Origin: Klebsormidium nitens
Taxonomy: Eukaryota > Plantae > Klebsormidiophyceae
NCBI GenBank assembly: GCA_000708835.1
Contig: DF237346.1
Location: forward strand, 22,444 to 86,443
Direction of reading: 5' to 3'
Length of the DNA stretch: 64,000 nt
In this document: in pieces, positions 16,233-64,000 of the stretch
How positions within the stretch are numbered: the stretch's first letter is position 1
Layout: every line of letters begins with the position of its first letter
Position numbers and translations under genes: made by a program
The notes under the pieces: generated by a model
What the model saw: the letters and a program-made list of their open reading frames with translations, nothing else
Database searches by the model: none
Told to the model about the DNA's origin: nothing

Positions 16233-19970
<3,738 letters not shown>

Positions 19971-43461: not shown

Positions 43462-46400
43462 TCAACTACCTGCCAGAGGAAGCTTCAATCGAAGAACCCA
43501 TTGCTTTACGCTCTTGAGGACGGCAGGGACTTCCTCATCTCCTAGAACTTTCTTGCCCTTGGACCAAGATTGCCATCCGTACTCATCAAACCTCTCTGTC
43601 GGGACCACATGCACTAAACGAACCTTCACTCCGCTTGCGCTGGCGCGCTCCACCAGCTGCCGCATCCCTTCTGCGCTACATCGATGCTGGACGTTGCGCG
43701 TGAACTGGACTGCGTTGACCAGCCGTCGCCCGAGCAAACTAGTGAATCCCAAGACTCCTGCGTTTTTACCAACGGCTTCACATACGTGGGCCGTTCCAGC
43801 TTGGCCAAGTCGATTCCTTTGCTCGGTGCGTCATACTTCTTTTCCTTGCTGCCCCCAAACGCTTCCTGGATCTCCTTGATTGCTTGCTCCCTCTGTTCCT
43901 TCTCTGCTTCCTTCTCCGCTTCCGTCTCCATTCGTGGCCGACCCACTGCCCCCTTGGACACCTCCTTGACATCCTCGGGATCTAGCGCTATGCCCTGCTG
44001 ACACATGTCATGCCCGTTCTGCTCTAGAAGATCCCCGGTCAGTTTGCCCAAGGTCGGCTCCTCAGCCGCAGCGCGCAGCATCGTCGTCAGGTCCCGCCAC
44101 CTGCCGAGCTTAGCTTTCTGGTAAACAAGCTCTTTGATTTTTTGTGAACCGAGGGTGTAACCGACCCACTCAAGGTCTTCTGTTGCCTGCACATGACAAG
44201 AGTGCAGAGGTGATTAGGGTGCAAGTCCGTGGTATGTGGTCCATGTGCAGATGAGCGCATGTCCTCAAGTCTGCTGCACACCTCCGCTTTCAATTTGTGA
44301 GAACTTCAAAATAAGCACAAGCCTTATAAGCACAGGACCAACTAGAGAGGAGCCCATTGTGTCACCTGCTTCGTATTGCTCAAACATGCAATCCAAAGAT
44401 GAAAGGTCGGCTATCATTTCAGCCATAACTTTTGACCTGTGCGCCAAGCTGACTCACCTCGATGTGCGCGAAAATGTGTCGCACTTCACTGTCCGAAGAC
44501 TGGGCGCTCAGATTGTACAGCTCCACGGCCTGGTCGGCATCTAGCGTGCGCGCGATGTCGTCAAAAGACGAGGTAGGGTTCGCCAAGACGTGCCTGACGA
44601 GCCCGCCAAACTCCTTCGCGCGCTTCTCCATCTGCTCTTGCGACACCTGCTCGTAGAGGTGCTCCCGGCAGTCCTCCAGCTCCTTCAGCGTCCACACTGG
44701 GAGCCACCACAGGAAGCATCCCCTGCACCACCAATCCAGATTGCCCAGGTCACAAAGGCGAAGTGACCGCAAAAGCAAAAGCTTGGGGTCAGTAAGGGTG
44801 TAAGAGCCACTAGACAACCAGCCTGTTTGTGCCAATGAATGAAGGGGAAATCGCAGGTGTCAAGCCTAGGAGGTAAAAGATGATCCTGAAGGAAATAGGG
44901 GATTGCAAGAAGGCGCCTGAAGGAGGCGGCCTTGGAGCCAGGTTTGACCGATTTCCAGCGAGGTGCTGCGGTATCAATGGCTTGCAGCCAGGGTCCAATG
45001 CGTCCGTAACCTAGCCAAGGTTGCAGAACAACAAGAACAGAGGGACCGTACAACAAGCACGTATTTACAGTTGCGCGTTGCAGGCCCAGGCAAGCACCCA
45101 GGACCTTGGACACATCAAGGATTCGATTCCTCTCAAGCATGAAGAGGTCAATTTGGAGCAACTATTATCGTTGTTCCAACAACTTACCGTCCCTTGACGA
45201 ACTCCCAGTAATTGCCTCTGTTGGGCGAGCACAGTACCACGCAGCGACCGTAACCCCGGAACTGCGTGTGAGGAGGCGCTCGTCCATCTATCACTCGCCA
45301 GACAGTGGGGCGCGCAGAGAGAGCTGCACAACAAGAGGGGCCAATCACTCTGGGGTGGGAATGCGGCAAAACCTGTCACATACTACTTCATCCACAGCCC
45401 AGACCCAGAGTGTGCGCTTTCGCAGGGGCTTACACTGTCACCTGACTTCATCACGAAAGCGCACTTGCATTCAATATCCACCAACATAGGACCTTTGCAA
45501 TCTTTGAAGCTAGAGCCAACTACCATTTGCTGCATAACATGGCTTTCACGGTCGCAACATCATGTGAAACTGTTTGCTCACATTCAAGGGATGGGAAGTC
45601 AGCAGCGCTTTCAGAGGCCCTTTTTACGTTGATGGCGGATGGATCTGAGAAATCGAAGAAGATTATGGTGTCCCGTGTAGCCTCATCCTTGTACCTGCAA
45701 AGGCAGACTGAGAATGTTGGCAGGAAACGAGGAAGCATGAATCCCTTGTCTGGGAAGCCCTTGTTAGAAGCAAGGTGCGAAGCATGATGCTCAGCGACAC
45801 ACGCCACAAGTCAAAAGCAGGCGACTACAGAATTGGCCGGCCAAGATGGTGTACGGTACCTGTATGCCACTTGTGCCCCCTGCTTTGCTAGATGGTGCAA
45901 CAGCAGGACTGCAAACGCTGATTTGCCGATGCCCGGAGTGCCACTCAGGACGACCGCAAAGTCGTTCCCAAGAGCCTCGAGCTTCTTGAGCACCGTGCGA
46001 TAGGATTCCCGGATGAAAATGCTGTCCCTCAGGCCTGGCGGCATTCCCTCCCTGAGCTCGTGCGGAATGTCGATGAATCCACTAGCGATGTCTACTTGCG
46101 CGATGTACTCCGCGTATTTCTGGAGCCGCTCTGGAATAGAAAGCACATCATTATTGTGGTGGGGGCTGACCACTGGCAGATCCAACGCTTTTTTGCTGAT
46201 GCAAGAGATCCTGCATGAGTCAAAAAGTACCTGAAACACCGATCAAGCAGAATACTATGCTGACCGTGCGACCGAACGCTCCAGCACACCACGGCGACAA
46301 GTGGAGCTAGGTACAAAGCCTCACCCAGGACTGCAGGGTCTTGAGCCGCCACCGCTGCACACGGCAGAAGCTCTCTGTCAGCACTCCATACGCAGTCACT

Positions 46401-47392
46401 GGATAAGCCAACTGCAAATGCTTAGCATGAACAGCGGCAATAAGGTTGGAAGTACACTCTCTGCACCGCGAAACCTTTCCGTCTGCATGTGGCCCTGACC
46501 CATGAACCAACACACGAACCTCAGGCAAACCCAGATACAAAAGCCCTTTTGAAGCAGCAGCTCAACTCTCTCTAAACTCTTTCCACTGCGAAGCCTTTCA
46601 ACCTGCAGGTCGCCATGACCCATTGAGCAACGCATGAATTGCAGAAAACGCCAGATGCAAAACCATCCATGGCGTGTGCCCTGGCGCTCTCTTTAAGAAA
46701 CATCAACAAGTAGCAGCAGGGGATTTCCCCTGCACCACAACATTGGCAGCAGAACGCTGCCCATGGTCATTCCCATCTATGCGCTGGTTTGCTGAGCTGC
46801 TCCAAGGAGAGGATCTCTGCACAAGGCCGCTCTCCATGCGTCCGACAACGGGAGACGCACCTGGTGTCCGCTGCAGCTTCAGACTTTCTACCTCCGCCTG
46901 CATGAGCGCGGTCAGCCGCTGCTCCAGCGCGGCCTTCTGCTGCTCCAACGCGACCAATCTTTGCTCCAACGCGACCAATCTTTGCTCCAACAACTCTGTG
47001 CTCTTGCCATCAGCCGCAGCCGCAGCCGCAGCCGCAGCCACAACATCGATCTGGTTCTCCACACGTTCAATTCTCTTCTCCGCACGCTCGATACTCGGCG
47101 TGAGAGCCTGTGCCTTGAGATCTGCCACCTGAGGCTTACGGTTGTCCCCGCTGGGACTCCCAGCGGACTCTGCTCTTCCCCGGGGGGTCTCTGCCCTCGG
47201 CGAGAGGCGCCTCAGTCCTGAACACACCTTGTACTCGGAATGGAACCGGCCCAGCCTCGATCCCTCAAAAAGAGGGCGAGGAAGTGCCCTGAAACCAAAC
47301 CGCTGGGGCATTGCAGGGGTAATGTCTGCCTGCCCGCACGAACATAAAGCCTTCGCCCCGGCCGCCTTGAAGAGCACTGCGGCAGACGCCAT
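43462..47392 (-). CDS. Crinkler (CRN)-like P-loop plus nuclease-like protein with N-terminal coiled coil; 1-nt frameshift near 43715 (possible pseudogene)
   Basis: IFIRESYR..VVLSGTPGIGKSAF (Walker A), VIDGRAP, CSPNRGNYWEF, LPVWTLKELE..FGGLVRHVL, GDLLEQNGH, YVKPL..ESWDSL, then after a shift VQFT..H...VRLVHVVP. This is the typical order in CRN-type families. Exons 46861-47392, 45860-46130, to 45694, ~45190-45300, ~44460-44720 and 43462-44186. Confidence 0.7.
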
Positions 47393-48107
47393 AGAACCTC
47401 ACCAGTGACGTCTCGCGGAGACTATTGAATGCGGTGCTTAAGCCCTTCCAACCTGCCACTCAGCCCTCGCACTCAACTTCGACCACAATGCTGGTTGACA
47501 AAGCTGAGGCCCAGAAGAGCGCTAGATTCAGGGGTACCGAGCGTCGATACGACCGGTTTAGGGGGTGAACCCTGCTCACGGTGGGCGAGCCTTTCTAGGA
47601 CAGAATCAAGCGAAGCTGGAGCAATTGCTTTAAGGACAGGCTTTCCGGGAGGTCTTGTCGATTGTGCCCATGAAGATCACGATTCTCCTCAGTGTCGGCC
47701 ATCCTGCTTCGAGAGTAACCTTTTCACTCTGGCCTTTGCTCATGCGGTGGCACTAAAAGCTTAGTATCCCAAGGAGGAGCGCGCCTGCCCAGCTTCCAAG
47801 CTTTCGGCTCTCAAGTTGCATCAACAGTCAAGTTAACCCCGAACTCGGAAACCTGCTTTCTCGTTCCGGTACGGTTCCCGACTGGTTCCGACCCTGATCG
47901 ACCACCCGCGCGGACACTGGACAGTGACCAAACCGCGTCATGCTCCCTCTTGTCTGCACGTTTTGTCCTTCTGGACCAGTATTGCGAACCGTCCTGTTCC
48001 CTCGGGCCTGCACGTTTGTCAAGCTGAGCAGAGAGATTGCAAACACCATCTTAAAGCTTTCAGGCAGGGCTGCTCCACAGCGACACAGGCAGCCCTGAGC
48101 AGCAAAG

Positions 48108-48114
48108 TATAAAA
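48108..48114 (+). promoter_or_regulatory. Candidate TATA box (TATAAAA)
   Basis: Consensus TATAAAAG upstream of the + strand exon-like segments at 48.2-50.1 kb. Motif match only. Confidence 0.25.
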
Positions 48115-48769
48115 GCCCCTTCCATTGCCATCATTCTTCAATCCATGTCTTCGCAGCGATAAGCTGCCAATTCCTTCTCAACAACCTCTCACTCTCTCGC
48201 ATAATTCCAGCCACTTCAGCTAGCAATCGCTGCCAGACTCAATCCTGCAGCAAAATATCAACAGTGTACGACACCAGCAGTGACGCCCCAGCGGACGTGA
48301 CCAGCTTCTTCAGCCACCCGCCTTGGGAATCTCAGCAACGCGCCCCTGGTCAGACTTTCTGCAACTGATCTTTCTTCCTGTTATGACCGTGCAGAAAGAT
48401 CAGCAGATTACAAGTCCTATTTGTTTGAAGGGGTCAGTCAAAAGTTGCCAATCATACGCATAAAGAAAGAAGAGTCTCTAACTGCGAGCAACTCATTTGC
48501 AATCAGCAGCTATGCAAAGCCATTCTGAGCTCAAGCGCCATGAGTTGACGCATATATTGCTGGTGCTCTTAGCTTTGTGAAACGGAAAGATGAAATTGCT
48601 GGTTTGATCTCAATATTTTCATCGATCGTGAAACTTGCACGGTGTTTTTGATCTGAATGACAGGGTAAGGGCATCGTTTCAGCAGCAGGAGGTTCCCTTT
48701 TGGAAACGTGGAACTTCTGTGCTGAAGGGTTGCTTGTTCAAAACACCCGTAGGCATCAGCATACCTGCC

Positions 48770-50093
48770 ATGGGGTCTGACCTGTGCTTCCCTTGGGAAA
48801 GGTGAGCTTTATCCCCTGCACAAAGGGCAGCTCCTGAAGTTGCAGGGTAGTACAGCTTTCGAGAAGCTTTGTAATGCTGTGACATCTCGCAAAACTGCCT
48901 GCAGGTCATAGCCATGGTCGGTGCCAGGCTGATTCACCACCATTGCACCACCTCTGCAGCACACTCTCCTATGCTAGCTAGCATCTGCTCCATACTCTGT
49001 GGACCCAACCCATTTAGCTCAAATGTTGTAGCGGAACATCTTCAAGTCGACGCGCCTTTTTGCTTATTCCTCCCCCCATTCTGGACTGCCGCAGCCTGCA
49101 AAAACCCTTGTGCTGATAGTCCTTTCTCTTTGCAGCGACCTGTCGGCTTCTGATGCCTCTGAAGGAGAGGATCTTGAAGGCGTTGAGTATGAACCTCGTT
49201 CCATCGATGGGTCTAAGTCAGAAGAATCACGGAGAGCTTCTTCAATGACGATGATTCTGCCAGCGTTCAGGGGCCGAGTTTCTACCGAGCTATCAACAAT
49301 GAAATTGTTGTCAACCCCAGGAACAAGAAGAACCAGGCCCCAGTGAGTCGTTCAAAACGGAAGTGCCTCGTACACTTGCACGCTCAGCAGATTTGTTACC
49401 TTCCTTCAGAAGCATATGCTAGCACAGCCAAGTCCATGAGTGCTTTCATTTTTGTTGCTGTTGACTGTTGCTTGTCTCATTTTGAGGTGTCGATTGATCT
49501 TTGTGAAGCGGGAGGCAAGCTGCCGAGGTTATGATGGTGAGAAAATGCTCGTGTCATTGCTCTTAAGGATATTCACCGGCCTCTCCGTATCGCTGGAACA
49601 AGAACAATGCGTTTAAAAAGGATCCCCTCATAACACTCCCAATCAAAGGCAAGGTAAAGAGAGAAGGGGAGGGGCTGCATGCCTGACTAGTTTTGCCTAG
49701 TGGAAAGGGTAGTGGGTGCGACAGCTAGCAACCAGGCTCGATGGCAACATGAGCCAGAAATGGAAGGTGGAAAGTACGGCGCTGTCGCACGAAGCGGAAT
49801 ATCAAGGTTGATTTCTGCTTTAGAGCAATGGGTTGCAGCAACCTTCCGTCTTGGATATACTTGTGAGTATAATTGATGAAGTTCCATCTTTGTAGGTGCT
49901 GTCCCCTCGCCGCTTACCTGCCGGCCGCTCACCACGGAGAGTAGAGAGAGATGGGAAAATGACTTCTCCTGAGGAGGAAGATGATGGTCCAGTGCTTACT
50001 AGCGGGCAAGCACTTATGACTAAGCTTCGGCGTATCATCCTCTCACAGGAGTCACAGGAGGAGACCGCAGCAACATTGCGGCCACTTCTAGAG
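48770..50093 (+). CDS. Putative acidic/low-complexity 5' exons that could splice onto the primase-helicase
   Basis: 48770-48801 (AG|gtgag, phase 2) joins 49136 (cag|C GAC CTG). 49342 (CCA|gtgag) joins 49896-50093 (phase 0), which is phase-compatible with the acceptor at 51068. Exon 49136-49342 needs one frameshift. Confidence 0.35.
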
Positions 50094-50519
50094 GTGCGGT
50101 CGCTATGTACTTAAATCGTTTTTGATGTGTGCACTAAGATGATTTTGTGTTTTTGAAAGAACTGTCAATCCGGATTGTATAGCTTGGATTGACTCCGCTA
50201 GGAGCTGTTTCTAGTTTAGTGTGTATATATTAATGTGTATCAAGAGTGTTCTATCGATCAGCCGGTGCATGCAAGGCCTTGTACCACACAAACATGTGTA
50301 GCACACGGAGAAAATCTGATGGTATATTTGCAAAGATGCATTGCACAGAGGCAAAATGTGGTGCGGTGTATACATAAAGAGGTGTATCAGTCCGAACTTC
50401 CAAGTGCATGACATCTGTTATAGATTATGCATTTTCTTGGATGCATCAAACACCCCACTGCAGCCAAGACTGCCCCCTCGAGTTATTGCGCAGGTCTAAA
50501 AGTTTAACAAAAAACAATT

Positions 50520-51040
50520 AAAAGGGCCTTTCCTTTCTATATGTAAAATTGGCAACTTTTGACTGGCTCCTCGACCGCCGGAGTTGCACAAAACTTGAGG
50601 TGAATACAAAATGCATTTCTAGCCTAGCGTAGCCAAAACCCCTCTCCTTTTCTATATATATAATCGGTGACTTTTTGGCTGATCCCTCGGGTTGGAGTTG
50701 CGCAAGTCTTGAGTTGAATACTAAAAATGTGTTTCTAGCCTAGCACAGCCAAAACGCCTCTCCTTTTCTATGTATAAAACCGACGACTTTTGGCTGATCC
50801 CTCGACCGCCCGAGAGCAACGTAGACTAGGGAAGGAGCCATAGGAAGAATTCCTAGCCTAGCGTAGCCAAAACGCCTTGCCTTTTCTTCCTAAGATGTAA
50901 AAGCGGCGACTTTCGGTTGATCCCTTGACCGCCGTAGAGTGGCATAGAGTAGAGAAGGAATCATAGGAAGAATCTCTAACCTAGCGCAGCCAAAACGCCT
51001 CTCCTTTCTATATATAAAGCCGGCAACTTTTGGCTGATCC
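50520..51040 (+). repeat. Array of 5 units (~116-123 bp) with a 51-bp quasi-palindromic core CAGCCAAAA-CRCCTCTC..TTCTATATRTAAA..GGCAAC-TTTTGGCTG
   Basis: Cores start at ~50520 (partial), 50630, 50746, 50864 and 50987. Spacers are related to each other. Confidence 0.9.
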
Positions 51041-51068
51041 CTCGTCGCCATTTCCCTCTTGTCTCCAG

Positions 51069-54000
51069 GGGGTGACCTCTGAGGCGGATGAGTGGGGCCA
51101 TATGTGGTGCTCGCGGCTTGCACCGGTAATATCCATCTTCGAAAGCCAGCGGCTACTGGCATCCGACGCCTTTGTTGCTACATGCGACGTTGGCAACAAA
51201 GGGGCAAAGATGTACAGCATCTTTACCAGCGCGGAATCATTCGAGGAGTATATTATAAAAAATCAAGCCAACGACAGCACGCCACACGTCTATGAGGTAC
51301 TGCTTGCTTCGGAGGCCTCTTGGCTATACTTAGACCTCGACTACACGTGTCATGTTCAGAACTCCCAAGATTTCCAACAAAGACGCCAACATCTTCATCG
51401 CCTCCTCGATCACTTTTGTGCTGATGTGATGCAGCTGTCTCTTCAACATCACCAGAGAGTGAATCTGCAAGTTGCGGCCTCACATGGATCTATTGCCCAG
51501 GGGTGCTTTAAGAGCAGCGTTCATGAAGTTTTCAAAGGAATTTACTTCCCTGATCTTGAAACACGTGTAGAATTCAAGAAAGCCTTCGGTCACTTCTTAG
51601 ACCATCCTCCCGCTGAGCTAGCACACAGCGCCGAATTTGTACAATACGTGAAACCTGGCAGCACGATTATACACAAAGTTTGGGATTCGGCTGTCTATTC
51701 TTCGAACCAGGTTTGGCGTACTCTTTGTTCAAGCAAGCACGGAAGTAACCGCGTACTTTTCTCAGAAGAAGGAAGCTCGGATTGCATTCTTGACCATTTC
51801 ATTGGCGTTCGAGGAGATGAGAACTTGATTGCCGCGCATAAAGTTGAAATCGAAGTGCTCCAAGCTTACAATGCAACGGCCGGAAGCGATAGCAAAAAAA
51901 ACATCCGCAAGGATTGCGAGGGTATACAAGAGCGGTCAATCCCCTTGCGGCGGTATTACAATGACAGCTTACAAGACAAACCACTACAGAGGGACCTTAG
52001 TCCGGAAGAACTGGCGCGACTTTTGGAGTGTGCTCAACAAGATCATTTGGGCGCGACACTGGAGCGGCCACGACAGATGTGCTCAGGCACCTTCATTGTC
52101 CATATCCAAGCGCCCTCTGTAAGCCGCACCTGTTGCCTTGCCGGCCGGCCTCACAATAGCCAGGGCAATGGTCAATACCTTGTCTATCGACGGGCAAAAC
52201 CAACTGAGGCGTTGTATAGATGCTTCTCACCCCATTGCCAGTGAGTTTGAGTCTTATTTATAAGAAGTTCGATTCTCGAGCTGAATTCACGCCTTTGCTA
52301 TCACCATCGTTTTTTGCTTTCTAGGAGATAACTAGCTCTTTGAACTATCTTCAAAGAAAACATCCTCTCGTGACCGGCTGAAAATAACGCAAGGCTCTTG
52401 GTGCATGCCTGCCTGCATAAAGTTAAATAAGCAAGAGTCAGCCAAAAAGTTGCTGGCAATGGAATCAGTTTCTGTGGAAATTACAAATTGCCTTTAAGCT
52501 AACTAAGTGTTTGCTTTCTTCTTTTCTACAGAGGCACCGAGCGCCTGCTCTCTCTTGGAAGCACCCTCCGTTGGACCGAGGATTACTCGTCGCCGATGGG
52601 AATGCGGCCATATCCAACACACAGAATCAAACCCGAAACTTTGCGGACCATATTGATTAAAGCAAACAAAGGAATTGGTAAGTCAAAGGCTGGCACTATC
52701 TATCTCAAGGAAATGTTAACCATAAATCCCTCCGCCAGTTGCGTCGTCATTGCCGGCAACGTGGCGCTTGCTGGCAAGCATCTTGAGGAGCTTCATAGCG
52801 TGGGGTTATCGGACTTTGTCCTCTATTCTGAAGTGGAAGGGAGTATTGAAGACAGACGGGTTGTTGTCTGCATCAATTCTGTGCCACGATTGTCCTCTTT
52901 CGATAAAGACATCGTCTACATGGACGAAATCGACATGACTCTTAGCAATCTAAGTTCCGATGTAATGAGGGATCGGCGAATGGTATTTTTGGGGCTGCAC
53001 GAGATCGTCGAGACAGCGCGTATTGTGGTGGGCTTGGACGCAAACGTCGATAGTGCACGCGTTGTTGAATGGCTCGAAGCTGTTCGTCCTGCCGCCTCCA
53101 TCTACGCCATCAAAAATACGGGGGTTCGCCGGTCAGAGCGAACAGCTACCATCTTGCCGCTACCCCCTGCAACGAAGTTGAAAGACCGGTTTGCCCCAAT
53201 TGTGAATCGGATCCTGGCAAACGTCGAGGCAGGAGAAAACATCTGGGTAAGTTTTTCAAAGTGTTGGAAAACCTGTTAAATGCTCGAATCGCTGGTCGAA
53301 TTGCAAATACTTGTTGTTGCACTCATGCTGTAGCAAATGTCAATTGTTGACATGGTAAGATGTTTCTCTTAAAAGCATGCACTCTCAAACTGTCTTTCAA
53401 CGTTTAAATGCAAATTGAGTACTTAAAGAGTGCTTCTCATTGCAGGTTGCCTCAACAAGCAGAACCTTTATTGAGCAACTCGAAGAAGGTTTCAATGCAG
53501 CGTTCGTCAATGGAGATAAAACGATTCTTACATTCCACGGAGGAAAAACATCGGCAGAAGACAAAGAGTTGCTTCAACGAGCGGTAGCCGAACCAAATGG
53601 CTGCATGGTTGCCCACTGTCTCGGTTACTCTCCAACTATTGGGCCTGGCGTATCGATGGAGGCTAAACACTACCATCGTGGGGTAGGGATTGGATTGAAT
53701 CGCCTAGAGCATGGCCCAGATGTTTTCACTTTCACACAAATGTTACAAAGAGTGCGCGATGGAGGCAATATTGAGATATACTATATGGAAAGCGGCGCCC
53801 CCAAGTTTGCACCTTCAACCAAAGAAGACGTCTTTAGAGCGATTGAACGGGAGGACGCCCAACTGCACTCTCTGATCAATCCAACTGAAGTCCTCGACTT
53901 TCTGAAATTACGTGGCAAGCGTCCTATTTGTGATCGAGCTTCTCCCACCTGTATTGTCTACGCTAACAATGTTTTGGCAAGGTACCAGAGCGTGACAAAC

Positions 54001-55957
54001 TACGTGAGCATATTGATGAAAGATCTTGAAGAGCAAGGGCTTACAGTGGTTGACAAACTGGAGGAAACGCAGCAGGAGGTCGAGGTACAGGAAGGTCCAG
54101 CCGAGAAATCCGGATCAGACCCTGATGCAGATCTTTCCGATGATGAGTGGCGCAAGCGGTTTTGTATCTCGCAAGAGGAAAATAAAGAAATAGTGAAGAA
54201 AAGAAAGAACCATGAGGGCGTGAGTAAGCTACAGGAGAAACAACAGAAAATCTACTTTTATGCAAATGAAGTCTACAAAGTGGATTACAAGAAAATCAAC
54301 CACTCATTCCTTGTGGACTACTGCAACGATTCCACACTGATTGAGTATACAAATTATCGAAGGTGAGTCTTTCTCTCCCTAACGTCACTGCCACGGCCAC
54401 ATTTTTGTGGCTGCTAAAAGAAACAGCCAAAAGTCGCCAGTTGTACATATAGAAAAAGAGAGGTGTTTTGGCTGCCAGGGTCAAGAGTCTCTCTATCTGT
54501 TGTTTCGCGATCGGCGTTTCTGCTGCTGCTCGATGACACAGCCAAAAGTTGCCAATTTTACATATAGAAAAAGAGAGGTGTTTTGACTGCCAAATTCAGG
54601 AGTCTCTCTATCTGTTGTCTTGCGTCCAAAGTCTCTGCTGCTGCTCGAGGGAACAGCCAAAAGTTGCCAGCTTTACATATAGAAAAAGAGAGGTGTTTTG
54701 GCTGCCAAATTCAGGAGTCTCTCTATCTGTTGTTCCGCGTCCAAAGTCTCTGCTGCTGCTCGAGGGAACAGCCAAAAGTTGCCAGCTTTACATATAGAAA
54801 AAGAGAGGTGTTTTGGCTGCTAGGGTCAAGAGTCTCTCTTTCTGTTGTTCCACGTCCAAAGTCTCTGCTGCTGCTCGAGGGAACAGCCAAAAGTTGCCAG
54901 CTTTACATATAGAAAAAGAGAGGTGTTTTGGCTGCTAGGGTCAAGAGTTTCTCTATCTGTTGTTCCGCAATCAGAGTTTCTGCTGCTGCTGCTCGAGGAA
55001 ACAGCCAAAAGTTGCCAGCTTTACATATAGAAAAAGAGAGGTGTTTTGGCTGCCAAGTCAGCAAGCCTTTTTTTTGGTCTGCCCGCTACTCTACGACGAT
55101 CGAGGAGTCAGCCTAACTTTCAACTGTATCCTCAATGATCAAAGAGCATCCATTAACCCCCCCATGTTTCTATATGTAAACCTGGGAACTTTTCGCTGGC
55201 AAGGCCGGAACAATAGATGGACCCCCAAACTTAGCAGCCAAAAGTTGCCAGCTTTGCATATGATAGAAAAGTAGAGGTGTTCTGGTTGAAGTCTCTCTAT
55301 TGCTCTAGCCATTGCTCTATCACGCGGCTCGATGAGACTGACAAAAGTTGCCAACTTTACGCATGGAGAAGGGAAAGTGGTTTGACTTCTGTTTGATTAA
55401 AAAGGACGTTTTGCCGGCAGTACTAAAAAAGTGCCTTTTTTCTTTACAGGTTTCAGCGCTTTCCATACGAAATGCTTCGATCAGAATGGGAATTGACGCT
55501 TAGCAATGCCAACAATCTTCTTCCAACAAAGGATTACCTGGAGACTCGCGACAAACCCAAATACCGTATCATATTCGCGTACTCTCTACTCGCTGAAATG
55601 CTTGAAGTCTCTCCCGAGGATGTTGACCACTTGCAAATCGGCGTTTCTTACGAGATCTCTGAGAGAAACCTTCAAGCTGCCTATGAAAAACTGGTGAAGC
55701 CACAGCTAGCCTTCGTAAAGCAATGGTACGACATCAAGCAAAAAGTCCCTAAGGACAAGAACTCTGGTGAAGCAGTTATGTCGGACGCTCTGAAGCGCAA
55801 CGTTGTCAAAAAGGTTTTGCAACTTGGTCTAGGGCTGAGGTTTGAAGAGATAGCAAATAAGAAGAGCAATCACAAGTTTGTGAAGGCACACAGATTTAGC
55901 CCAGATTTATGGAAAGACATGCACGTTCGATTTGGAGGAGCAGAAGCTGAAATCTAA
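51069..55957 (+). CDS. AEP (PrimPol/herpes-NCLDV-like) primase - Zn finger - UL9-like origin-binding SF2 helicase fusion, ~1100 aa, 4 core exons
   Basis: Exons 51069-52240, 52532-53246, 53446-54362 and 55450-55957 are all phase-compatible GT-AG. AEP motifs: YEVL..WLYLDLD, SSVH, DSAVYSSNQVWR..SSKHG. Zn finger: CCLAGRPH..CFSPHC. Helicase: ILIKANKGIGKS, YMDEID, LDAN, YSPTIGPGVS, QMLQRVR. Confidence 0.82.
54424..55370 (-). repeat. Intronic array of the same 51-bp core in inverted orientation, 115-bp period
   Basis: CAGCCAAAAGTTGCCAGCTTTACATATAGAAAAAGAGAGGTGTTTTGGCTG starts at 54424, 54539, 54654, 54769, 54884 and 55002. Degenerate copies lie at ~55235 and ~55340, and a flipped partial at ~55155-55195. 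All lie within intron 54363-55449. Confidence 0.93.
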
Positions 55958-56091
55958 AATTGCATGCAGGTTGCAGTCAATCAATTTGTTTGCTTTCATT
56001 CTTATTCGCATTGAACCAATGAGTCCTTACTGCAGCATGTTTTGCCGAAGCATAAGGAACTGCAAGAGTGATGCATGCACTTCAGATGTTT

Positions 56092-56470
56092 TCATGAGAT
56101 ATTCCTCGTCTGAACTCTCTGACGATGATCATCACCTCTTGTTTCGACCTTGATTTTTTTGGTATTTTTCTTAGACGCAACACTTTTCTTTGCACCATGC
56201 TTCTTACGAGCACCGCTGTCTTTTGCGGACCGTTGAGTAGACTCGTGTCTTTGCACCTCGGGCTGTCGAAGTTGTTTCGAAAACCGAAAAATCTAGTTTT
56301 GTCGCATACGATGAAAAAGTCCCCTCGAATGGTAGATTTTTTGGTCGATCACATTTTGTTATCGGAACGATATGAACTCGATACGCAGACTGTTTCCGCT
56401 GAGATCCTCGAGTTGTTTCTTGGAGCATCACCGATACGCAAGTTGGCAACTTAACTTGTTTGCCTTGATC
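56092..56470 (-). pseudogene. MC1-like DNA-binding protein, copy 1 (5' truncated by the repeat array, frameshifted)
   Basis: GKQVKLPTCVSVMLQETTRGSQRKQSAYRV..., a direct repeat of ~60140-60520 with a frameshift before the basic tail. Confidence 0.7.
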
Positions 56471-56479
56471 TAAAAGCGA

Positions 56480-59400
56480 TTCGGCATTATTCACGATCAG
56501 AAAGTGTTGGGCATTATCTACGATCCAAAAGTGTTGAGCATTATCTACGATCCAAAAGTGTTGGGCATTATTGACGATCAGATAGTGATTGAGCGTCATC
56601 GACGATCCGATGGTGTTTGGGCATTATCTACGATCCAAAAGTGATTGAGCCGCTTATCGACGATCCGAAAGTATTTGGGCATTATCTACGATCCGATGGA
56701 GATTGATCATCTCTACGATCCAAAATTGATGGAGCATTATCTTCGATCCGATGGCGGTTGATCATTTTAATTCTACGATCAAAAAGTGAATGGGCATTAT
56801 CTACGATCCAAAGGCGTTAGGTATTATCTACCATCCGATCCGATTCTGATTGTCCGCTCTCAAACTTCGGCCGTGAATTTTCTGTTCCCCGTGGTCGACT
56901 TTTGACGACTCTGGGTCACTAAATTTGAATTGTCGGAGTTTAGAGCCGGAATTTTCGGCGCGTCGACTCACTAGGAGGTCACTGGCTACTACCCAGCCTT
57001 CAAAAACTACATTTTTTGATCAAATTTGAAACTTCGATCGACTTTCGACCGTCGTCAACCGTAGATGTGGACCGGCAGTCGTCAAAATCAGCCACATGGC
57101 TGCCACCGTGGAAGTTCGTGAGCGGAGGAACTCTAGACTAGGTCCCGAGCTCGGGACCAAACTCGGATGCAAGTTGTCTCGGGCCCCTTAAACGCGGGGC
57201 CAACATGCTGTTTTCGACGGAGCGTTCGATGCATCGAAATACGGGCGAGAGTACGACATATCGTCGAAACCCGGAAACATCGCACCTAATAAGTTTGCAG
57301 ACTGGCGCTGCAACATCTTGTCCCTGCATTTAATGGGCCCGAGTGTGGGCGTTTGTACGATCCCATGATGAATGTTCATTTGGTACGATCAAAGTTGAAT
57401 GGGCGCTTGTACGATCCAATGTTTTGGCATTATCTACGATTCAACAGTGATTGAGCATTATCAACGATCCGAAAGTGTTTGAACATTATCTACGATCCAA
57501 AAGTGTTAGTCATTAATGACGATCCGAAAGTGATTGAGCATCATCGACGATCCAAAAGTGTTTGAGCATTATTGACGATCCAAAAGTGTTTGAGCATTAT
57601 TGACGATCCAAAAGAATTTGAGCATTATCTACGACCCCAAAAGTGTTGGGCTTTATTGACGATCCGAAAGTGATTGAGCATCATCGACGATCCGATGGTG
57701 TTTCGGCATTATCTACGATCCAAAAGTCATTAAGCATTATCGACGATCCAAAAGTATCTAAGCAATGATTATCTACGATCCAATATTGATCATGGACTTG
57801 CATGATCTACGATCCGATGGCGGTTGATCATTATCTACGATCCGAAAGCGTTAGGGCATTATCTACCATCCGATCCGATTCTCCGCTCTCAAATTTTCGG
57901 CCGTGGATTTCTGTTCCCCGTGGTCGACTTTTGACGACTCTGAGTCACTAAAATTGATTTGTCGGAATTCAGCGCCGGAATTTTCGGCGCGTCGACTCAC
58001 TAGTAGGTCACTGGCTACTAGCTAGGCTACTACCCAGCCTAGCTAGCCTAGCTAGTAGCCAGTACTCGGTCGAGCCCGGCTCCAGAAAAGTTGATTTCGA
58101 CCAAATTTGGAACTTCAATCGACTGTCGACTGCCTTCGACCGTAGATATGGACTGGCGGACGTCAAACTCAGCCACATGGCTGCCACCGTGGAAGCGAAG
58201 GAACTCCAGCCTGGCTAGGTTCCGAGCTCGGGACCAAACTGTGGGCGTTTGTATGATCCCATGATGAATGTTCATCTAGTACGATCAAAGTTGAATGAGT
58301 GTTTGAACTTTGTACGATCCAATGTTTTGGCATAATCTACGATCCAAAAGCGTTAGGCATTATCTACGATCCAATGGTGTACGGGCATTATCTACGATCC
58401 AAAAGTGTTGCGCATTATTGACGATCCGAAAGTGATTGAGCATCATCGACGATCCCAAAGTGTTCGAGCGTCATCTACGATGCGGTGGCGATTGCTCAAT
58501 TTCTACGATCCAACAGTGATGGAGCACTATCTTCGTACGATCACACGATCTAAAAGTGATTTGGCATTATCTACGATCCGATGGCGGTTGATCATCATTT
58601 TCTACGATCCGGACGTGATTGAGCATTATCTACCATCCGATCCGATTCTCCGCTCTCAAACTTCGGCCGTCAATTTTCTGTTCCCCGTGGTCGACTTTTG
58701 ACGACTCTGGGTCACTAGATTTGAATTGTCGGAGTTTAGCGCCGGAATTATCGGCGCGTCGACTCACTAGTAGGTCACTGGCTACTAGCTAGACTACTAC
58801 CCAGCCTAGCTAGCCTAGCTACTGTAGTAGCCAGTGACTCGGACAAAAACTTGATTTCGACCAATTTTGTAACTTCAATCGACTTTTTCGACTGCCGTCA
58901 ACCGTAGATATGTGGACTGGCGGACGTCGAACTCAGCCACATGGCTGCCACCGTGGAAGTTTGAGCGGAGGAACTTCAGGCTAGGCCCCGGATCTCAGAT
59001 GCCTCATGTGGGCGTTTGTACGATCCGCTGATGAATGTTTATTTGGTACGATGAAAGTTGAATGGACCTTTCTACGATCCCGCGATGATGAATGTTCATT
59101 TGAAACGATCAAAGTTGAATAGGCGTTTGTACGATCCAAAGGTGACTGTTTGATTGATACGATACAAAATTGATTGGCGAGAATGTACGATCTGATGGTG
59201 ATCGGTCATCATATACGATCCAGAGTGGTTGGGCAATTGTACGATTAGATGGGCATTGTTCATTTGGTACAATTGTTTGGGCATTCGTACCACCCAAGGG
59301 TGATTGTTCTTCATGTACGATCCGCCGATGATGATGAATGTTCATTTGGTACGATCAAAGTTGAATGGGCGTTTGTACGATCAAAAAGTGATTGTTTGAT

Positions 59401-59600
59401 TGATACGATACAAAATTGATCGGCGATAATGTACGATCTAATGGTAGTTGGTCATCATATGCGATCCAGAGTGGTTGGGCAATTGTACGATTAGATGGTC
59501 ATTGCTCATTTGATACAATCGGTCGGGCATTCGCACCACCCAAATGGTGCTTGTTCTTCATGTACGATCCGATGATGAATGTTGATTTTCTACGATCCCA
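56480..59600. repeat. Higher-order array of ~27-28 bp units with core (T/G)ACGATCC, interrupted by three copies of a ~450-570 bp conserved block
   Basis: The unit is GGCATTATCTACGATCCAAAAGTGTT(G/T), with roughly 60-70 cores by eye. The conserved block (CCATCCGATCCGATTCT...CAGCCACATGGCTGCCACCGTGGAAG...) starts at 56831, 57866 and 58633. There is also a ~246-bp tandem duplication at ~59100-59590. Confidence 0.93.
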
Positions 59601-59834
59601 CAAATCTCTTTTTGCATCTTGCAATGCTTATGACACAGGTTTCAGTTATAAATTTAAAGGGGTTTGAAGATTTGGGTCTTGTTACCACTTATGCACTTTC
59701 CACAACCAAAGCACCAAGTTCTAAGCACCTTTTACGCAAGGCATAAGAATGGTTGCGTGTTTTTGCGTGAGTGAGTCTTCGAGAGCATGTTAAACGTGGT
59801 TGTGGACTATTCAGAGTTGTCAGAAAGCTTAGAC

Positions 59835-60130
59835 GATGAGCTGAGCTTTCTGACGATGAATCATCGTCTCTTGTTTAGACCTTGGTTCTTTTCACAAGTT
59901 TCTTCAGCACTTTTCTTTGCACTATGGTTCTTACAAGCACAGTTGTCTTTTGCGGACCGTTGAGTAGAACCCGTCTTTGCAGCTTGGGCTGTCGAAGTTA
60001 TTTCGGAAACCGAAAGATCTAACTTAGTTGCATAAGATGAAAAGGTCCCCTTCAACGATCGATTTTTTGGTTGATCACATTTCTTGACTGGAACGATACA
60101 AACTCGATACAAAAACTATTCCCATTGAGT
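59835..60130 (-). pseudogene. MC1-like DNA-binding protein, copy 2 (3' part only, frameshifted)
   Basis: YRVCIVPVKKCDQPKNRSLKGTFSSYATKLDLSV..., a tandem partial duplicate of copy 3. Confidence 0.7.
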
Positions 60131-60152
60131 TCATATTGAACGTGATTGTGAA

Positions 60153-60695
60153 CTATTCATCGTCTGAGCTTTCCAACGATGAATCATCTTCTCTTGTTTG
60201 GACCTTGGTTTTTTTGGCTGGTTTCTTAGACGCAGCGTTTTTCTTTGCACCGCGCTTCTTACGAGCACTACTGTCTTTTACAAACCGTTGGGTAGAAATT
60301 GTATTTTCAGCTCGGGCTTTCGAAGTTGTTTCAAAAACCGAAAGATCTAGCTTAGTTGCATAAGATGAAAAAGTCCCCTTGAACGATAAATCCCGTGGTT
60401 GATCGGATTTCTTCACTGGAACGATACGAACTCGATAAGCAAATTGCTTTCGCTGAGATCCACGCGTCGTTTCTTGAATCATCACCGATACACAGGTTGG
60501 CAGCTTGACTTGCTTGCCTTGGCATTTCTGCGTCCGGTAGAGTTGTGATCCAGCTCGAGCTCCAGCTTGACTCACGCGTCCCTTGACCGCATCAATTTCG
60601 AGACGCATATCTTAATCAAGGGCGAGCGCATCTTGGTTCTTACTATCTCTAGCTGCAACCACCTTGAAGCTTCTTTTTTGACCAGCGGCATCCAT
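60153..60695 (-). CDS. MC1-like (NCLDV-type chromosomal protein) basic DNA-binding protein, copy 3; one in-frame TAA at 60612-60614
   Basis: MDAAGQKRSFKVV...(stop)...GRVSQAGARAGSQLYR...VMIQETTRGSQRKQFAYRVRIVPVKK plus a K/R-rich and acidic tail. KRSF.V, AA.KA.SQL.R and I.ETTRGS.KK.F.Y match the viral MC1 domain as I recall it. Confidence 0.65.
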
Positions 60696-61041
60696 TGTCG
60701 ATGTAACCTTTAATGAGATAGCTTGAGAAAATAATAGTACCCCTAAGGCATTTATTGTATATGTGAGTGCATTTCATAGCTCAAGATTCAAAAATGGTTC
60801 TGAAAGAGGAATCCGCAAGCATGCTTTTTGAAAAAGTGACAAGCGAAATTTGGATAACTACTTATTGTTTTGAGAAATCTCGAGATTTCTCAACATTTTC
60901 CTTACCCCGCTTGCAGTTTATAGAAGGTAACTACAAAATGTATTCTTCTGGTCAATTTATTTTGACATGCTAGATTTTGATAACTCAATCGTCTAACCGA
61001 CATGTTACAAAATTATTTTCGGGAGGGTAAGATAACTATAG

Positions 61042-61873
61042 ATGGATGTCACGCTTCAACAAGTTTTGACTGACGGGATTCGAAGCCTAAGTGTCAGTCA
61101 AGCAGTATCTGAAGGGAATCAAGTTCCTTTGGGACCTCTGTTTTGAACCTGAGGAAATGCCTAGTAATCCAACATGGATTAAGGCAAAAGCCAAGATAAT
61201 TATTGAATCAGTTCTTGAACGATACAATAACCCTGGAAGCAGACGAACCCGTTTAGCCCCGTTCTTGGCCGTTTGTAGAAAGATGGGTTTTTCGGAGGCG
61301 TATAAGATATACTATGAACCGTTTAAAAGTCAGAAAGGTGCTCTTAAGGAGCTACGAGAACAACAGCTCGAGAAAGAGAAAATCGAAAACGGCACCGTCT
61401 ATATGAATACTGGAGAGGTTGAAACATTTGGGAAGAAACTAGCTCGAAAGGTTCGTAGTATGACATTTGTTGGGGATTCGATGCAGAAGCTCAGTACGAA
61501 GGAGATCAAAATAATCATGGTGCACTTGTTACTTGAATGGTCTATGCTTGTTGATCAAGATCACCAATCACGGGTGAAGCTATATGATCTTCCAATTGTC
61601 AGAAAAGGGGGGAAAATACGTTTAAGTGGATGTTATCTTTTGGAGACATCTCGGCGAAAAGGTTCATACAAATTGGTCTTTGAAGATGGCAATGAAATAG
61701 GATCGAGCAAAATGCTTAGCAGATACATACATCGCACACTTGAAATTCTACCACGGGAGTATCTGCTGACATCCATTTCACAGCCTGAAGTACCAATGTC
61801 AGCTTCTAACTTTGCGATCTTTTGTAGCAAAATCGAATGTGAGGGGAAGCGCTTTAATCCAAAACAGGTGTAG
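61042..61873 (+). CDS. Degenerate tyrosine-recombinase paralog lacking the C-terminal catalytic motifs; 1-nt frameshift near 61090 relative to the ATG at 61042
   Basis: Collinear similarity to the downstream YR: SVKQYLK ~ TVIAYMR; LAPFLAV ~ AAPFAIL; HLLLEWSML ~ HLLLSLYTM; LPREYLL ~ IPRKYVI; SNFAIF ~ KNFTIV. It ends at KRFNPKQV* before the LRH, MGH and Y motifs. Confidence 0.55.
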
Positions 61874-61933
61874 GTTATGCGTGTACATAAGTTCGAATTA
61901 TAATTATTATCTTGTTGAAAGATAAGTACATAT

Positions 61934-62992
61934 ATGATGGACCCTAAGCTTGCGGCCGAGGTACAATCTATCCTCAAGAATCAAAGCGATGATAAGATTG
62001 CTCGCGGAGCTCCTGCGCATCGTAGTGACTCGACGGTAATTGCATACATGCGCCAGCTATCACATGTGTACAAAGAAGGGGTATTCGGCCCCGAGATAAT
62101 GGAGGATCTCGAATGGATAAAAGCCTCCGACGCAGTGATTGCGGTCATCGAAGGTTTGACAACACGTAACGGTGAGTTACTAAAAGCACTTACAAAGAGC
62201 AACTACGCCGCTCCGTTTGCCATTTTAACTCAACATTTAGGTGCTTCAAGTGCTCAAGGTAAGTACACAAGTTACATTCAGAAGATGAAGCCATCAGAAG
62301 AGGAATTGGATCGTACGATACAGAGGAAAACACCTAAGGAGGTTGCAAATTGGGTACCTTGGGACGAGCTTGTCAAGCGGCGAGGCGAGCTCGATCAACA
62401 GATTGTCGCAAACATAGTGCCAAAATTCCAGGAGAAGAGAAGACTTACATTTTTCGATAAGCAATTAATGATGGACCACCTGCTACTCAGCCTTTACACA
62501 ATGACTCCAGGCCCGTTGAGAAACGAATATGCGGAATGCGTCTTTTTCTTTAAAGAAGATGGTGACCACGAACTTACTTTAAATCCCGGAGATGTGAACA
62601 CGTGCGAGCTGAATGATGATTTCGACCGTTGTTTCTTCCATCTGGGAAGACACAAAACTCTTGAAAAAGATGGTGTCAGAAAACTTGCCATACCGGAGAC
62701 GCTCGTGAATGTGCTTCTCAGAAGTTTCAATCTTATCCCACGCAAATACGTGATCCTAAAAAGACACTATCTTGCCTGGAAAGACAAGCCACATAAGAAC
62801 TTCACTATTGTCCTCAACGACCTTGGTCAACGCCAATTTAACAAGAACTTGTCATGTACACTTTTACGACACATTTCACATACGGAAGAGTCTTCAAAGT
62901 TGCACTCAAGAGGCGAATTGCGAGCAAAGGCGAGGTATATGGGTCACAGTCTTCGAACGGCTGATGAGCTCTATGATAGACGATATGCTTGA
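61934..62992 (+). CDS. Tyrosine recombinase/integrase (PLV/NCLDV-type), 352 aa
   Basis: Catalytic constellation: GPLRNEY (R), GRHKT (K), TLLRH (R), YMGHS (H) and DELY (Y). Intact single-exon ORF. Confidence 0.85.
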   Translation: MMDPKLAAEVQSILKNQSDDKIARGAPAHRSDSTVIAYMRQLSHVYKEGVFGPEIMEDLEWIKASDAVIAVIEGLTTRNGELLKALTKSNYAAPFAILTQHLGASSAQGKYTSYIQKMKPSEEELDRTIQRKTPKEVANWVPWDELVKRRGELDQQIVANIVPKFQEKRRLTFFDKQLMMDHLLLSLYTMTPGPLRNEYAECVFFFKEDGDHELTLNPGDVNTCELNDDFDRCFFHLGRHKTLEKDGVRKLAIPETLVNVLLRSFNLIPRKYVILKRHYLAWKDKPHKNFTIVLNDLGQRQFNKNLSCTLLRHISHTEESSKLHSRGELRAKARYMGHSLRTADELYDRRYA

Positions 62993-63001
62993 AAAGCCAA
63001 G

Positions 63002-64000
63002 CTACCGTTGCAAGCATGGGCATACGTACGTGCTTTTTGGCATATTTCCCTTGGGGAATCGAACCGGATCGGGCATTGGAGGGTCTCCTACATAGTGTTC
63101 ACAGTCTGGTTTCATACGTACTCCCGAAAGTCCTTTGAACTGGCCTCTGAGCTGAATAGAATGATCAACGTATTTTCCATCTTGTATTTGAAAATTGAAG
63201 CCATCAGCATACAGTATTATCTTCTTTTTCAAAGCCGTAGGAGTGAGAGAGCTGCTTAAACCCTCCTTTTGCGTCCAACTTTTGAAAGCATCACCAAGAC
63301 TTTGCCCAAGTCCAAGATAGTAAGTTGATTGATCTTCGGGAGTCTTAAACTCCAAGCAATCTTCAATAAAGCGCTTGCCAAGATCCGAGTCGCTGATGTA
63401 ACCTTTCAGTGCATCTTCCATTGCTTTTGGGCGCTTTTCCAAAACACGCTTGTTTGGATTAGCCCTCTTCAGGTCAAAGTAACGTTTTGCTCCTGCAGCA
63501 ATCCAAGACAAGCCCTCTTCTTTGCCTTTTTCAGATTTAAGGTATGTGTCAAGCGTGGGATCCATGAGCTTTTCACGAGGTTTATTGGGGTTTGGATTGC
63601 TCTTAAAGGTCACAATCATGGGGAGAAGCGCCATTCGTCGGGTTAGACTAAAAGACGCGTTTTCCATGATCGGCTTATAATTGGTATTCAACACTGCTTT
63701 GTGGGTGATCAGAAAGGTTTCTGGTGGAGTATGGAGTTGTCGAGCTGTGATATGACCACCTCCCGAAAGCTCTTTGATTGTTCCCTCATTTAAGATGGCT
63801 CTTTCAGAACTTTCATCGCTTTCTGCAAGCCTAGCTCCTTTTAAGGTTATTAAATGACTCGAAGGTGACCCCGCAGATCGTTTTCCGCCAGCTTCTATGA
63901 TAACGTCCCTATCCATTACAACCGCATAACTGCCAAATATCTCAAAAGATGCAATCTTGGTGAGTGATTTGCCGTTGGATCCATCCCCTTGCTTGATGAG
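63002..64000 (-). CDS. D5-like/P4-family primase-associated SF3 helicase, C-terminal part (5' end beyond the window)
   Basis: The frame stays open to the window edge: LIKQGDGSNGKS (Walker A), LKGARLAESDES (Walker B), LNEGTIKELSGGGHITARQLH, NTNYKP (sensor N), RRMALLPMIVTF. Confidence 0.88.
   Translation of the reverse strand, partial: LIKQGDGSNGKSLTKIASFEIFGSYAVVMDRDVIIEAGGKRSAGSPSSHLITLKGARLAESDESSERAILNEGTIKELSGGGHITARQLHTPPETFLITHKAVLNTNYKPIMENASFSLTRRMALLPMIVTFKSNPNPNKPREKLMDPTLDTYLKSEKGKEEGLSWIAAGAKRYFDLKRANPNKRVLEKRPKAMEDALKGYISDSDLGKRFIEDCLEFKTPEDQSTYYLGLGQSLGDAFKSWTQKEGLSSSLTPTALKKKIILYADGFNFQIQDGKYVDHSIQLRGQFKGLSGVRMKPDCEHYVGDPPMPDPVRFPKGNMPKSTYVCPCLQR

Follow-up and report, generated by a model that had tools for sequence, protein, structure and literature searches.

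In a stretch of 64,000 nt of the alga Klebsormidium nitens (contig DF237346.1 of assembly GCA_000708835.1, positions 22,444-86,443 of the forward strand; hereafter the window), we characterized a spliced gene encoding in one protein an archaeo-eukaryotic primase (AEP), a zinc finger and a UL9-like superfamily 2 (SF2) helicase. On a modest balance of probability, our results suggest that this gene is the host-spliced replicase of multi-copy integrated elements related to Polinton-like viruses, and that this copy is probably starting to decay. Judging from the domain content and the neighboring genes, the SF2 helicase would bind and open the origin of the element and move along the DNA, priming and possibly primer extension would fall to the zinc finger and the AEP, the copy of the element would be completed by host polymerases, and the neighboring tyrosine recombinase would act in excision and integration. 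The initial annotation of this DNA had offered either such a replicase or a domesticated host enzyme; the former is the better option, domestication being weakly supported for a gene with many copies, several of them broken.

Gene structure and splicing

The four exons listed in Table 1 as A to D give a frame of 1,103 codons plus a stop with no internal stop, and a chance open reading frame (ORF) was rejected, as a random frame of the same composition would stay open with a probability of about 6e-26. The three introns between these exons are all GT-AG (291, 199 and 1,087 nt, in phases 2, 0 and 2), and each holds 2–11 stops in every frame. The joined protein aligns unbroken over all three junctions to its closest paralogue, K. 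nitens KFL_003120135 (P0002), with 660 of 1,119 columns identical (59%). The anatomy initially annotated (four exons, three introns in these phases and ~1100 stop-free codons) thus holds, and the spliced contigs described below agree with the nuclear expression that had been proposed.

Splice joints were taken from public contigs of 8 of the 24 listed runs, whose RNA status we presume. The joint of intron 1 occurs in contigs of four of the eight runs (three studies) and that of intron 3 in one, so that the transcript check succeeded for these two junctions but not for intron 2, which is bridged in none of the eight; one run has a 12-letter loose end matching the end of the preceding exon, and this intron is deduced mainly from homology, namely the sequence and its colinearity with P0002. 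The annotated gene start at 51069 turned out to be a splice acceptor, and contig joints place four further introns 5′ of exon A (48349-48663, 48802-49135, 49343-49895 and 50094-51068), giving seven in total. Splicing is seen in contigs for six of the seven, and the spliced contigs come from four studies. The joint of intron 50094-51068 is present in 5/8 runs (with more than 30 letters on the short side in one run only), and that of the leader intron 48349-48663 in all four runs that cover the region.

On the spliced RNA, the enzyme frame spans 1,148 aa from ATG 49959, which is preceded by nine or ten ATGs depending on the RNA start. Unproductive RNA forms also occur: an alternative donor at 52119 removes the zinc-finger end and leads to a stop at residue 438, a poly(A) end lies at 51383 inside exon A, and some contigs read unspliced across donor 50094. 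When intron 1 is left unspliced, a stop follows one residue beyond the last zinc-finger Cys. A loose contig end at 48090 (one run) had no match anywhere in the window.

Table 1. Features of the primase-helicase gene and of its right-hand neighborhood (positions in the window)
Position	Strand	Feature	Evidence
48349-48663	+	Leader intron, GT-AG, 315 nt; an alternative acceptor lengthens it to 48752; degenerate copy of the intronic repeat at 48429	Contig joints, repeat search
48770-49944	+	Spliced 95-aa upstream ORF from ATG 48770 (exons 48770-48801, 49136-49342, 49896-49944)	Contig joints, paralogue similarity
49224-49320	+	Inferred interval in which a frameshift probably separates the ATG-48770 frame from the enzyme frame	Paralogue alignment
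49959-50093	+	Opening 45 codons of the 1,148-aa enzyme ORF, with the first in-frame ATG	Spliced-frame reading
50094-51068	+	Phase-0 intron, 975 nt, with an array of 115-123-bp repeats (~50534-51044, minus orientation)	Joint in 5/8 runs
51069-52240	+	Exon A: AEP primase-polymerase domain (motif I DLD 51333, II SVH 51516, III DSAVY 51684) and zinc finger (C..H 52131-52154, CxxxxC 52221-52238)	Profile, fold model, motifs
52241-52531	+	Intron 1, phase 2, precisely between zinc finger and helicase	Joint in 4/8 runs
52532-53246	+	Exon B: first RecA domain of the UL9-like SF2 helicase (Walker A KGIGKS 52668, DEID 52923, LDAN 53034)	PF02399, E 4.2e-17
53247-53445	+	Intron 2, phase 0, 199 nt	P0002 colinearity; 12-letter loose end in 1/8 runs
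53446-54362	+	Exon C: second RecA domain (SPTIGPGVS 53629, QMLQRVR 53737) and start of the C-terminal region	Motifs, P0002 alignment
54363-55449	+	Intron 3, phase 2, 1,087 nt, with 5.5 copies of a 115-bp repeat	Joint in 1/8 runs
55450-55957	+	Exon D: end of the C-terminal region and stop codon	Frame, P0002 alignment
56100-60611	.	27-28-bp tandem arrays, longer duplications, and a 152-codon minus-strand frame (60153-60611) with two decayed copies	Repeat and ORF search
61091-61873	+	260-codon ORF with weak likeness to a recombinase family profile	E 6.2e-5, six-frame window search
61937-62992	+	Tyrosine recombinase, single 351-aa ORF with R-K-R-H-Y-type motifs; multi-copy, Preplasmiviricota-like	Motifs, clusters
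63002-64000	-	3′ end (332 codons) of a D5-like superfamily 3 (SF3) helicase gene running out of the window	PHROG primase-helicase, E 3.4e-28 on residues from 63329-64000

Protein domains and viral ancestry

The virus-type fusion of primase, zinc finger and UL9 helicase that had been annotated was confirmed, in this domain order, by profile, fold and PF02399 matches. Indeed, a profile built from 23 relatives matched human PrimPol (E 1.7e-18) with motifs I, II and III aligned, DLD, SVH and WDSAVY being present in the window protein, and the fold model of the AEP (predicted local distance difference test score 86.1, from a 40-row alignment) matched PrimPol, poxvirus D5/E5, herpesvirus UL52 and the PrimPol of African swine fever virus (ASFV). 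The AEP clade of nucleocytoplasmic large DNA viruses and herpesviruses is reported with the motifs hhhDhD/E (I), sxH (II) and hD/E (III) (PMC4538821). The zinc finger, possibly UL52-like, follows a C-H-C-C pattern; PF03121 reached 17.1 bits in P0002, below its cut-off of 21, and the window exon had no Pfam match. Exon B matched PF02399 with 62 bits (cut-off 20), the SF2 motifs I–VI being whole (KGIGKS, DEID, LDAN, SPTIGPGVS, QMLQRVR; UL9 motif definitions as reported in PMC13483431). The C-terminal 350 aa are conserved with P0002 (185/350), and the C-terminal third, which is conserved in the family, returned no match in Pfam or PDB sequence searches; this region might hold a UL9-type origin-binding and dimerization domain.

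An ordinary host PrimPol gene beside a DEAD-box gene was rejected, given the fusion, the DxD motif, the multi-copy state and the DEAD family score, which stayed below the cut-off in P0002; a host PrimPol orthologue would be stand-alone, single-copy and DxE. Among viral models, the best fold matches were the Bodo saltans virus origin-binding protein (E 1.5e-14), pithovirus primases, ASFV F1055L and an Ostreid herpesvirus primase; the viral-model library may contain few Polinton-like viruses. In the initial annotation, the fusion was called a large-DNA-virus architecture, of which the viral ancestry stands but not the restriction to large viruses, since the fusion is also reported in mriyaviruses (bioRxiv 10.1101/2024.02.29.582850) and polisuviruses. 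In addition, P0031, an unbroken metagenomic protein, is collinear with the primase-helicase (25% over 893 aa), and because it is both unbroken and collinear, the AEP-UL9 fusion is probably older than the introns.

A multi-copy family with an apparently shared intron

The full-library search gave 30 matches, one of which (P0026) is unrelated repeat noise, and word-based protein searches returned P0002 only. The resulting family includes many copies from metagenome collections and seven K. nitens gene models, none of which is the window gene or exceeds 59% identity to it; four models carry a UL9 helicase, one a D5 helicase, one is a C-terminal remnant only and one is partial. The same AEP clade is joined to a UL9 helicase in P0002, P0013, P0050 and P0053 and to a D5 helicase in P0057, and broken copies were found (P0008 is without helicase, P0050 is interrupted). 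The tree of 38 AEP domains (seven short rows left out) displayed several well-supported subfamilies with short tips and an uncertain deep order where long branches meet; a PrimPol-like DxE protein fell outside the family, on a long and unsure branch. Note that scans of viral and metagenome contigs depend on near-exact peptide words, so that empty results carry little weight: such scans found no related loci in viral contigs (queries P0002, P0031, the recombinase, alignments A6 and A8, and the intronic repeat) or in metagenome contigs (queries exon B and the D5 fragment).

Intron positions of the relatives were deduced indirectly, from protein ends and gene models. Among 10 apparently ORF-called relatives that reach the zinc finger, 8 end one residue past the last Cys and the others 4 and 30 residues later, and three spliced NCBI models continue past the zinc finger into the helicase. 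Because most ORF-called relatives stop at this residue and spliced models continue, the position of intron 1 is apparently common to subfamilies that are 31-36% identical. Intron 1 was likely gained before the family diversified, and the family would therefore have long depended on the host nucleus. The conservation of all catalytic motifs at 59% identity supports past selection on the family; the annotated claim of selection can thus be kept for the past of the family but not for this copy today, considering its probable 5′ frameshift and its unproductive RNA forms.

As an alternative, the host could have domesticated the gene for repair or repriming, in which case the enzyme would be translated from ATG 49959 and the upstream ORF would act as a regulatory leader. 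Such an enzyme would fit the 1,148 open codons with every catalytic motif present, the spliced contigs from four studies, the host-like leader and splice sites, and a GC content at third codon positions (GC3) intermediate between element and host. However, we consider it improbable, as the gene is one among many copies with several broken, no K. nitens model is nearer than 59%, one of the nine or ten upstream ATGs stands in a better context, splice and poly(A) forms are aberrant, and mobile-element genes adjoin.

A probable frameshift in the 5′ exons

ATG 48770 (GCC ATG G) has the best context among the upstream ATGs; the 95-aa frame starting there stops 14 nt short of ATG 49959. Similarity to the acidic N-terminus of paralogue P0057 is found both in the first half of this frame and, in the enzyme frame, in the stretch just before ATG 49959, order and spacing being preserved; the first half of the 95-aa ORF is probably the original acidic N-terminus of the primase-helicase. 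The alignment score to the P0057 N-terminus rises from 55 without shift to 86 with one frameshift (read with X), a value reached by 0/40 codon shuffles and by 4/150 block shuffles keeping local composition; in the same test, P0053 gave 0/40 and 7/150, and the N-termini of P0002, P0008 and P0017 gave no support for a frameshift alignment. Both frames combined would make ~1,248 aa, compared to 1,237 in P0002. An assembly frameshift was rejected since contigs over 49224-49320 show no insertion or deletion compared to the window.

From these alignments, the frameshift near 49224-49320 is rather likely a true lesion, and this gene copy probably began decaying through it. Ribosomes starting at ATG 48770 would produce the 95-aa peptide, and only those that re-initiate at ATG 49959, or reach it by leaky scanning, would make the enzyme; the output of enzyme from this copy is probably low, via re-initiation, if there is any. 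The frame annotated as intact is so from ATG 49959 onward but not 5′ of it, where the best-context ATG enters a dead-end frame.

A live element could also use the two-frame 5′ end as a designed throttle, in which a short RNA and the upstream ORF would keep the replicase low, and the choice of splicing would decide between a PrimPol-like protein on its own and the full primase-helicase. The upstream ORF stopping so close to ATG 49959, the intron 1 with its in-frame stop at a domain boundary (apparently conserved over subfamilies), the whole recombinase frame and the introns reported in latency genes of latent algal viruses are in line with this idea. Nevertheless, it appears doubtful, since the similarity to paralogues crosses frames, as a lesion would, the paralogue models carry the acidic N-terminus in frame, no canonical slippery site was seen by eye, and decayed ORF copies lie between the primase-helicase and recombinase genes.

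The N-terminal extensions of three K. nitens paralogue models contain a 2A-like (ribosome-skipping) motif (P0008 residues 109-128, P0017 321-340 and P0057 75-94, the latter degenerate), and none was found in the window. The consensus was taken from an abstract, and the 2A-like activity is a prediction.

Neighborhood of the gene and nature of the putative element

Left of 47.4 kb, the window contains host-type genes at 52% GC. To the right of the primase-helicase, tandem arrays and decayed copies of ORFs occupy 5 kb; next come a recombinase-like ORF, an entire tyrosine recombinase gene and the tail of a D5-like helicase gene, and this side is at 41-45% GC. GC3 is 0.51 in the primase-helicase, 0.46 in the tyrosine recombinase and 0.41 in the D5-like gene, versus 0.62-0.71 in five host-side ORFs; CpG depletion was uninformative (exons 0.84-1.09, host side 0.89). 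Words of CCAAAAGT are concentrated within 50.7-58.4 kb (20/23). The recombinase gene is intron-free, as annotated, with one ORF of 351 codons, and only the last 332 codons of the D5-like gene, also annotated as intron-free, lie inside the window. No contig covered the recombinase, the ORF at 61091 or the D5-like gene in four runs, and this was not used as evidence.

The nearest clusters of the recombinase belong to Preplasmiviricota (score 0.98), and it has 14 relatives at 52-71% identity, two of them in clusters of 14 and 15 members, many truncated. In P0003, a protein encoded on a 5-kb contig, the D5 tail (87% identical to the window) is fused with the middle part of the AEP (86%), and both genes are therefore physically linked in another copy. 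A tyrosine recombinase and an AEP-helicase replicase thus occur together, as in polisuviruses, the link to the window gene being suggested by proximity and P0003. The arrangement of P0003 would fit an inversion or a deletion between window positions near 51744 and 63083.

Another origin would be a relic of an endogenous giant virus with a primase-helicase of R8/F1055L type, whose introns were gained in the host and which was passively duplicated, the recombinase and D5-like genes being a separate insertion. The viral fold matches led by the Bodo saltans virus protein, the neighbors by features, which are Nucleocytoviricota clusters (0.97), the giant-virus core genes reported in Klebsormidium (PMC5294986) and the spliceosomal introns reported in giant endogenous viruses of green algae all speak for it. 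We still regard it as unlikely: no giant-virus hallmark gene was found among the 30 ORFs scanned; mobile replicases, more than a single insertion, would account for the many divergent subfamilies, the shallow tips and the swapping of helicases; the D5-like and AEP genes are linked in P0003; and the recombinase is Preplasmiviricota-like. As for giant-virus core genes, no family B polymerase, capsid, A32 ATPase or VLTF3 was seen up to the window end at 64000, only a D5-like fragment.

Several observations weigh against the replicase of a Polinton-like-virus-related element. The best viral fold matches are giant-virus proteins, and endogenous Polinton-like viruses are described as intron-free (PMC10120064). 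The Pfam scan of 30 window ORFs gave no capsid or packaging-ATPase gene, and no terminal repeats or element ends were found in the window, only intronic inverted repeats; the window stops inside the D5-like gene, so that the element is not delimited. A Polinton-like virus would be expected as a 15-40 kb unit with terminal inverted repeats and with major and minor capsid proteins. The gene lies 6 kb from the recombinase and has an intron-rich and host-like leader. P0003 is one contig, which could be the orthologous locus of another strain or a misassembly, and the metagenome-collection copies may be alleles of different strains. Concerning decay, the closest paralogue P0002 has no similarity to the upstream exons (score 29), and this upstream-exon region is acidic and low in complexity, with only a borderline result in the strict shuffle test.

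Comparison with known systems

AEP-UL9-like fusions are reported in mimivirus R8, ASFV pF1055L, Ostreid herpesvirus 1 (OsHV-1) and some Yaraviridae (bioRxiv 10.1101/2024.02.29.582850; NCVOG0024 in PMC3493329), and the role of this primase-helicase class (mimivirus gp8) is described as unclear (PMC8097291). The window protein resembles them in domain order, intact AEP motifs and UL9-type helicase motifs, with fold matches to F1055L (E 1.1e-12) and to the OsHV-1 primase (E 1.7e-9); in contrast to them, its gene is intron-split, chromosomal and multi-copy, and it has an acidic N-terminal extension and only 13-17% identity. Polisuvirus (Polinton-like virus and virophage) replicases are reported as AEP-SF2 fusions with helicase swapping and tyrosine recombinase pairing (bioRxiv 10.64898/2026.10.13.758929; PMC11296320; bioRxiv 10.64898/2026.06.19.733378). 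The window shares with them the AEP with SF2 or SF3 helicase swapping, a tyrosine recombinase, nearby short repeat arrays and a second replicase in the region; unlike them, its gene has introns, and the part covered by the window yielded neither a capsid module nor terminal repeats.

Eukaryotic PrimPol (human, PDB 5L2X / 7JKL) is the best solved-structure match of exon A (same profile E-value as above; Foldseek E 1.8e-11), and both have an AEP followed by a zinc finger, whereas the window protein has DxD and not DxE in motif I, shares ~20% identity, is fused to a helicase and is multi-copy. The helicase core matches herpes simplex virus 1 (HSV-1) UL9 (PDB 9HGJ, E 3e-4) and phage N15 RepA (25.7%, E 5e-5), P0002 being the query for both, but HSV-1 UL9 is without primase, and no match to the UL9 C-terminal origin-binding domain was found. 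Intron-bearing giant endogenous elements of green algae and intron-rich mirusviruses, for which spliceosomal introns are reported (PMC9693826; bioRxiv 10.64898/2026.10.09.758095; PMC12768974), are alike in that GT-AG introns interrupt viral genes and are removed in the host nucleus; they differ from the present family, a small-element replicase family with an intron apparently shared over subfamilies, and no giant-virus or mirusvirus core genes were seen in the window. Giant-virus insertions in Klebsormidium are also reported (PMC5294986; PMC11244446).

The AEP-UL9 fusion is thus known from viruses, as are introns in integrated viruses; what looks new is that a replicase family is both multi-copy and intron-bearing, one intron, at a domain boundary, being apparently ancient. 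Among the matches listed, no paper on the Klebsormidium AEP-helicase family was found, subscription papers and supplements being largely outside the scope. This family would illustrate in detail how replicase genes of viral origin became a nuclear, intron-bearing gene family in an alga closely related to land plants. The timing of introns relative to integration, raised as a question for algal endogenous viruses (PMC9693826), becomes directly askable, the shared intron position pointing to intron gain before the family spread. In addition, the family provides a primase-helicase of R8/F1055L type that is amenable to study, and it models a route by which viral fusions could turn into stand-alone PrimPol-like genes. 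Going further, there may exist in streptophyte algae capsid-less, fully nuclear, self-replicating tyrosine-recombinase DNA elements derived from Polinton-like viruses, with a spliced replicase; depending on the splicing of its ancient boundary intron, the product would be a PrimPol-like enzyme on its own or the complete primase-helicase, and the palindromic repeats in its introns would be binding sites of the replicase. We put this forward as a speculation that is unlikely to hold.

Repeats and other features of the window

One repeat family occurs in three introns (48429-48470, 50534-51044 and 54410-55387). The array in the intron before exon A is inverted relative to that of intron 3, and each unit has a 51-bp imperfect palindrome with an AT-rich center. 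These intronic repeats could be binding sites or a small transposon array, or could favor exon skipping or circular RNA. Rfam gave no match within 47000-64000. The region 56462-59600 contains 27-28-bp tandem arrays and 155-246-bp duplications, which have the word CCAAAAGT in common with the intronic repeats; it is possibly an origin or end region of the element. Within it, contigs of lower identity from other loci match 57177-57343 in 4/4 runs, indicating a repeat present at other transcribed or genomic places. The decayed-copy set consists of the lysine-rich 152-codon frame at 60153-60611 (minus strand), without Pfam match, and of copies at 59906-60130 and 56128-56467.

On the host side, an intron-rich gene at 43600-47400 (minus strand) lies head to head with the primase leader and encodes a coiled coil and a P-loop NTPase exon (nSTAND3, E 5.4e-6, under the cut-off). 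Further host-type exons, in the stretch 35100-42000 and at 18987-19565, encode a DNA repair metallo-beta-lactamase (37305-41756, minus strand), ankyrin repeats (35291-36154, plus strand) and a methyltransferase (18987-19565, minus strand).

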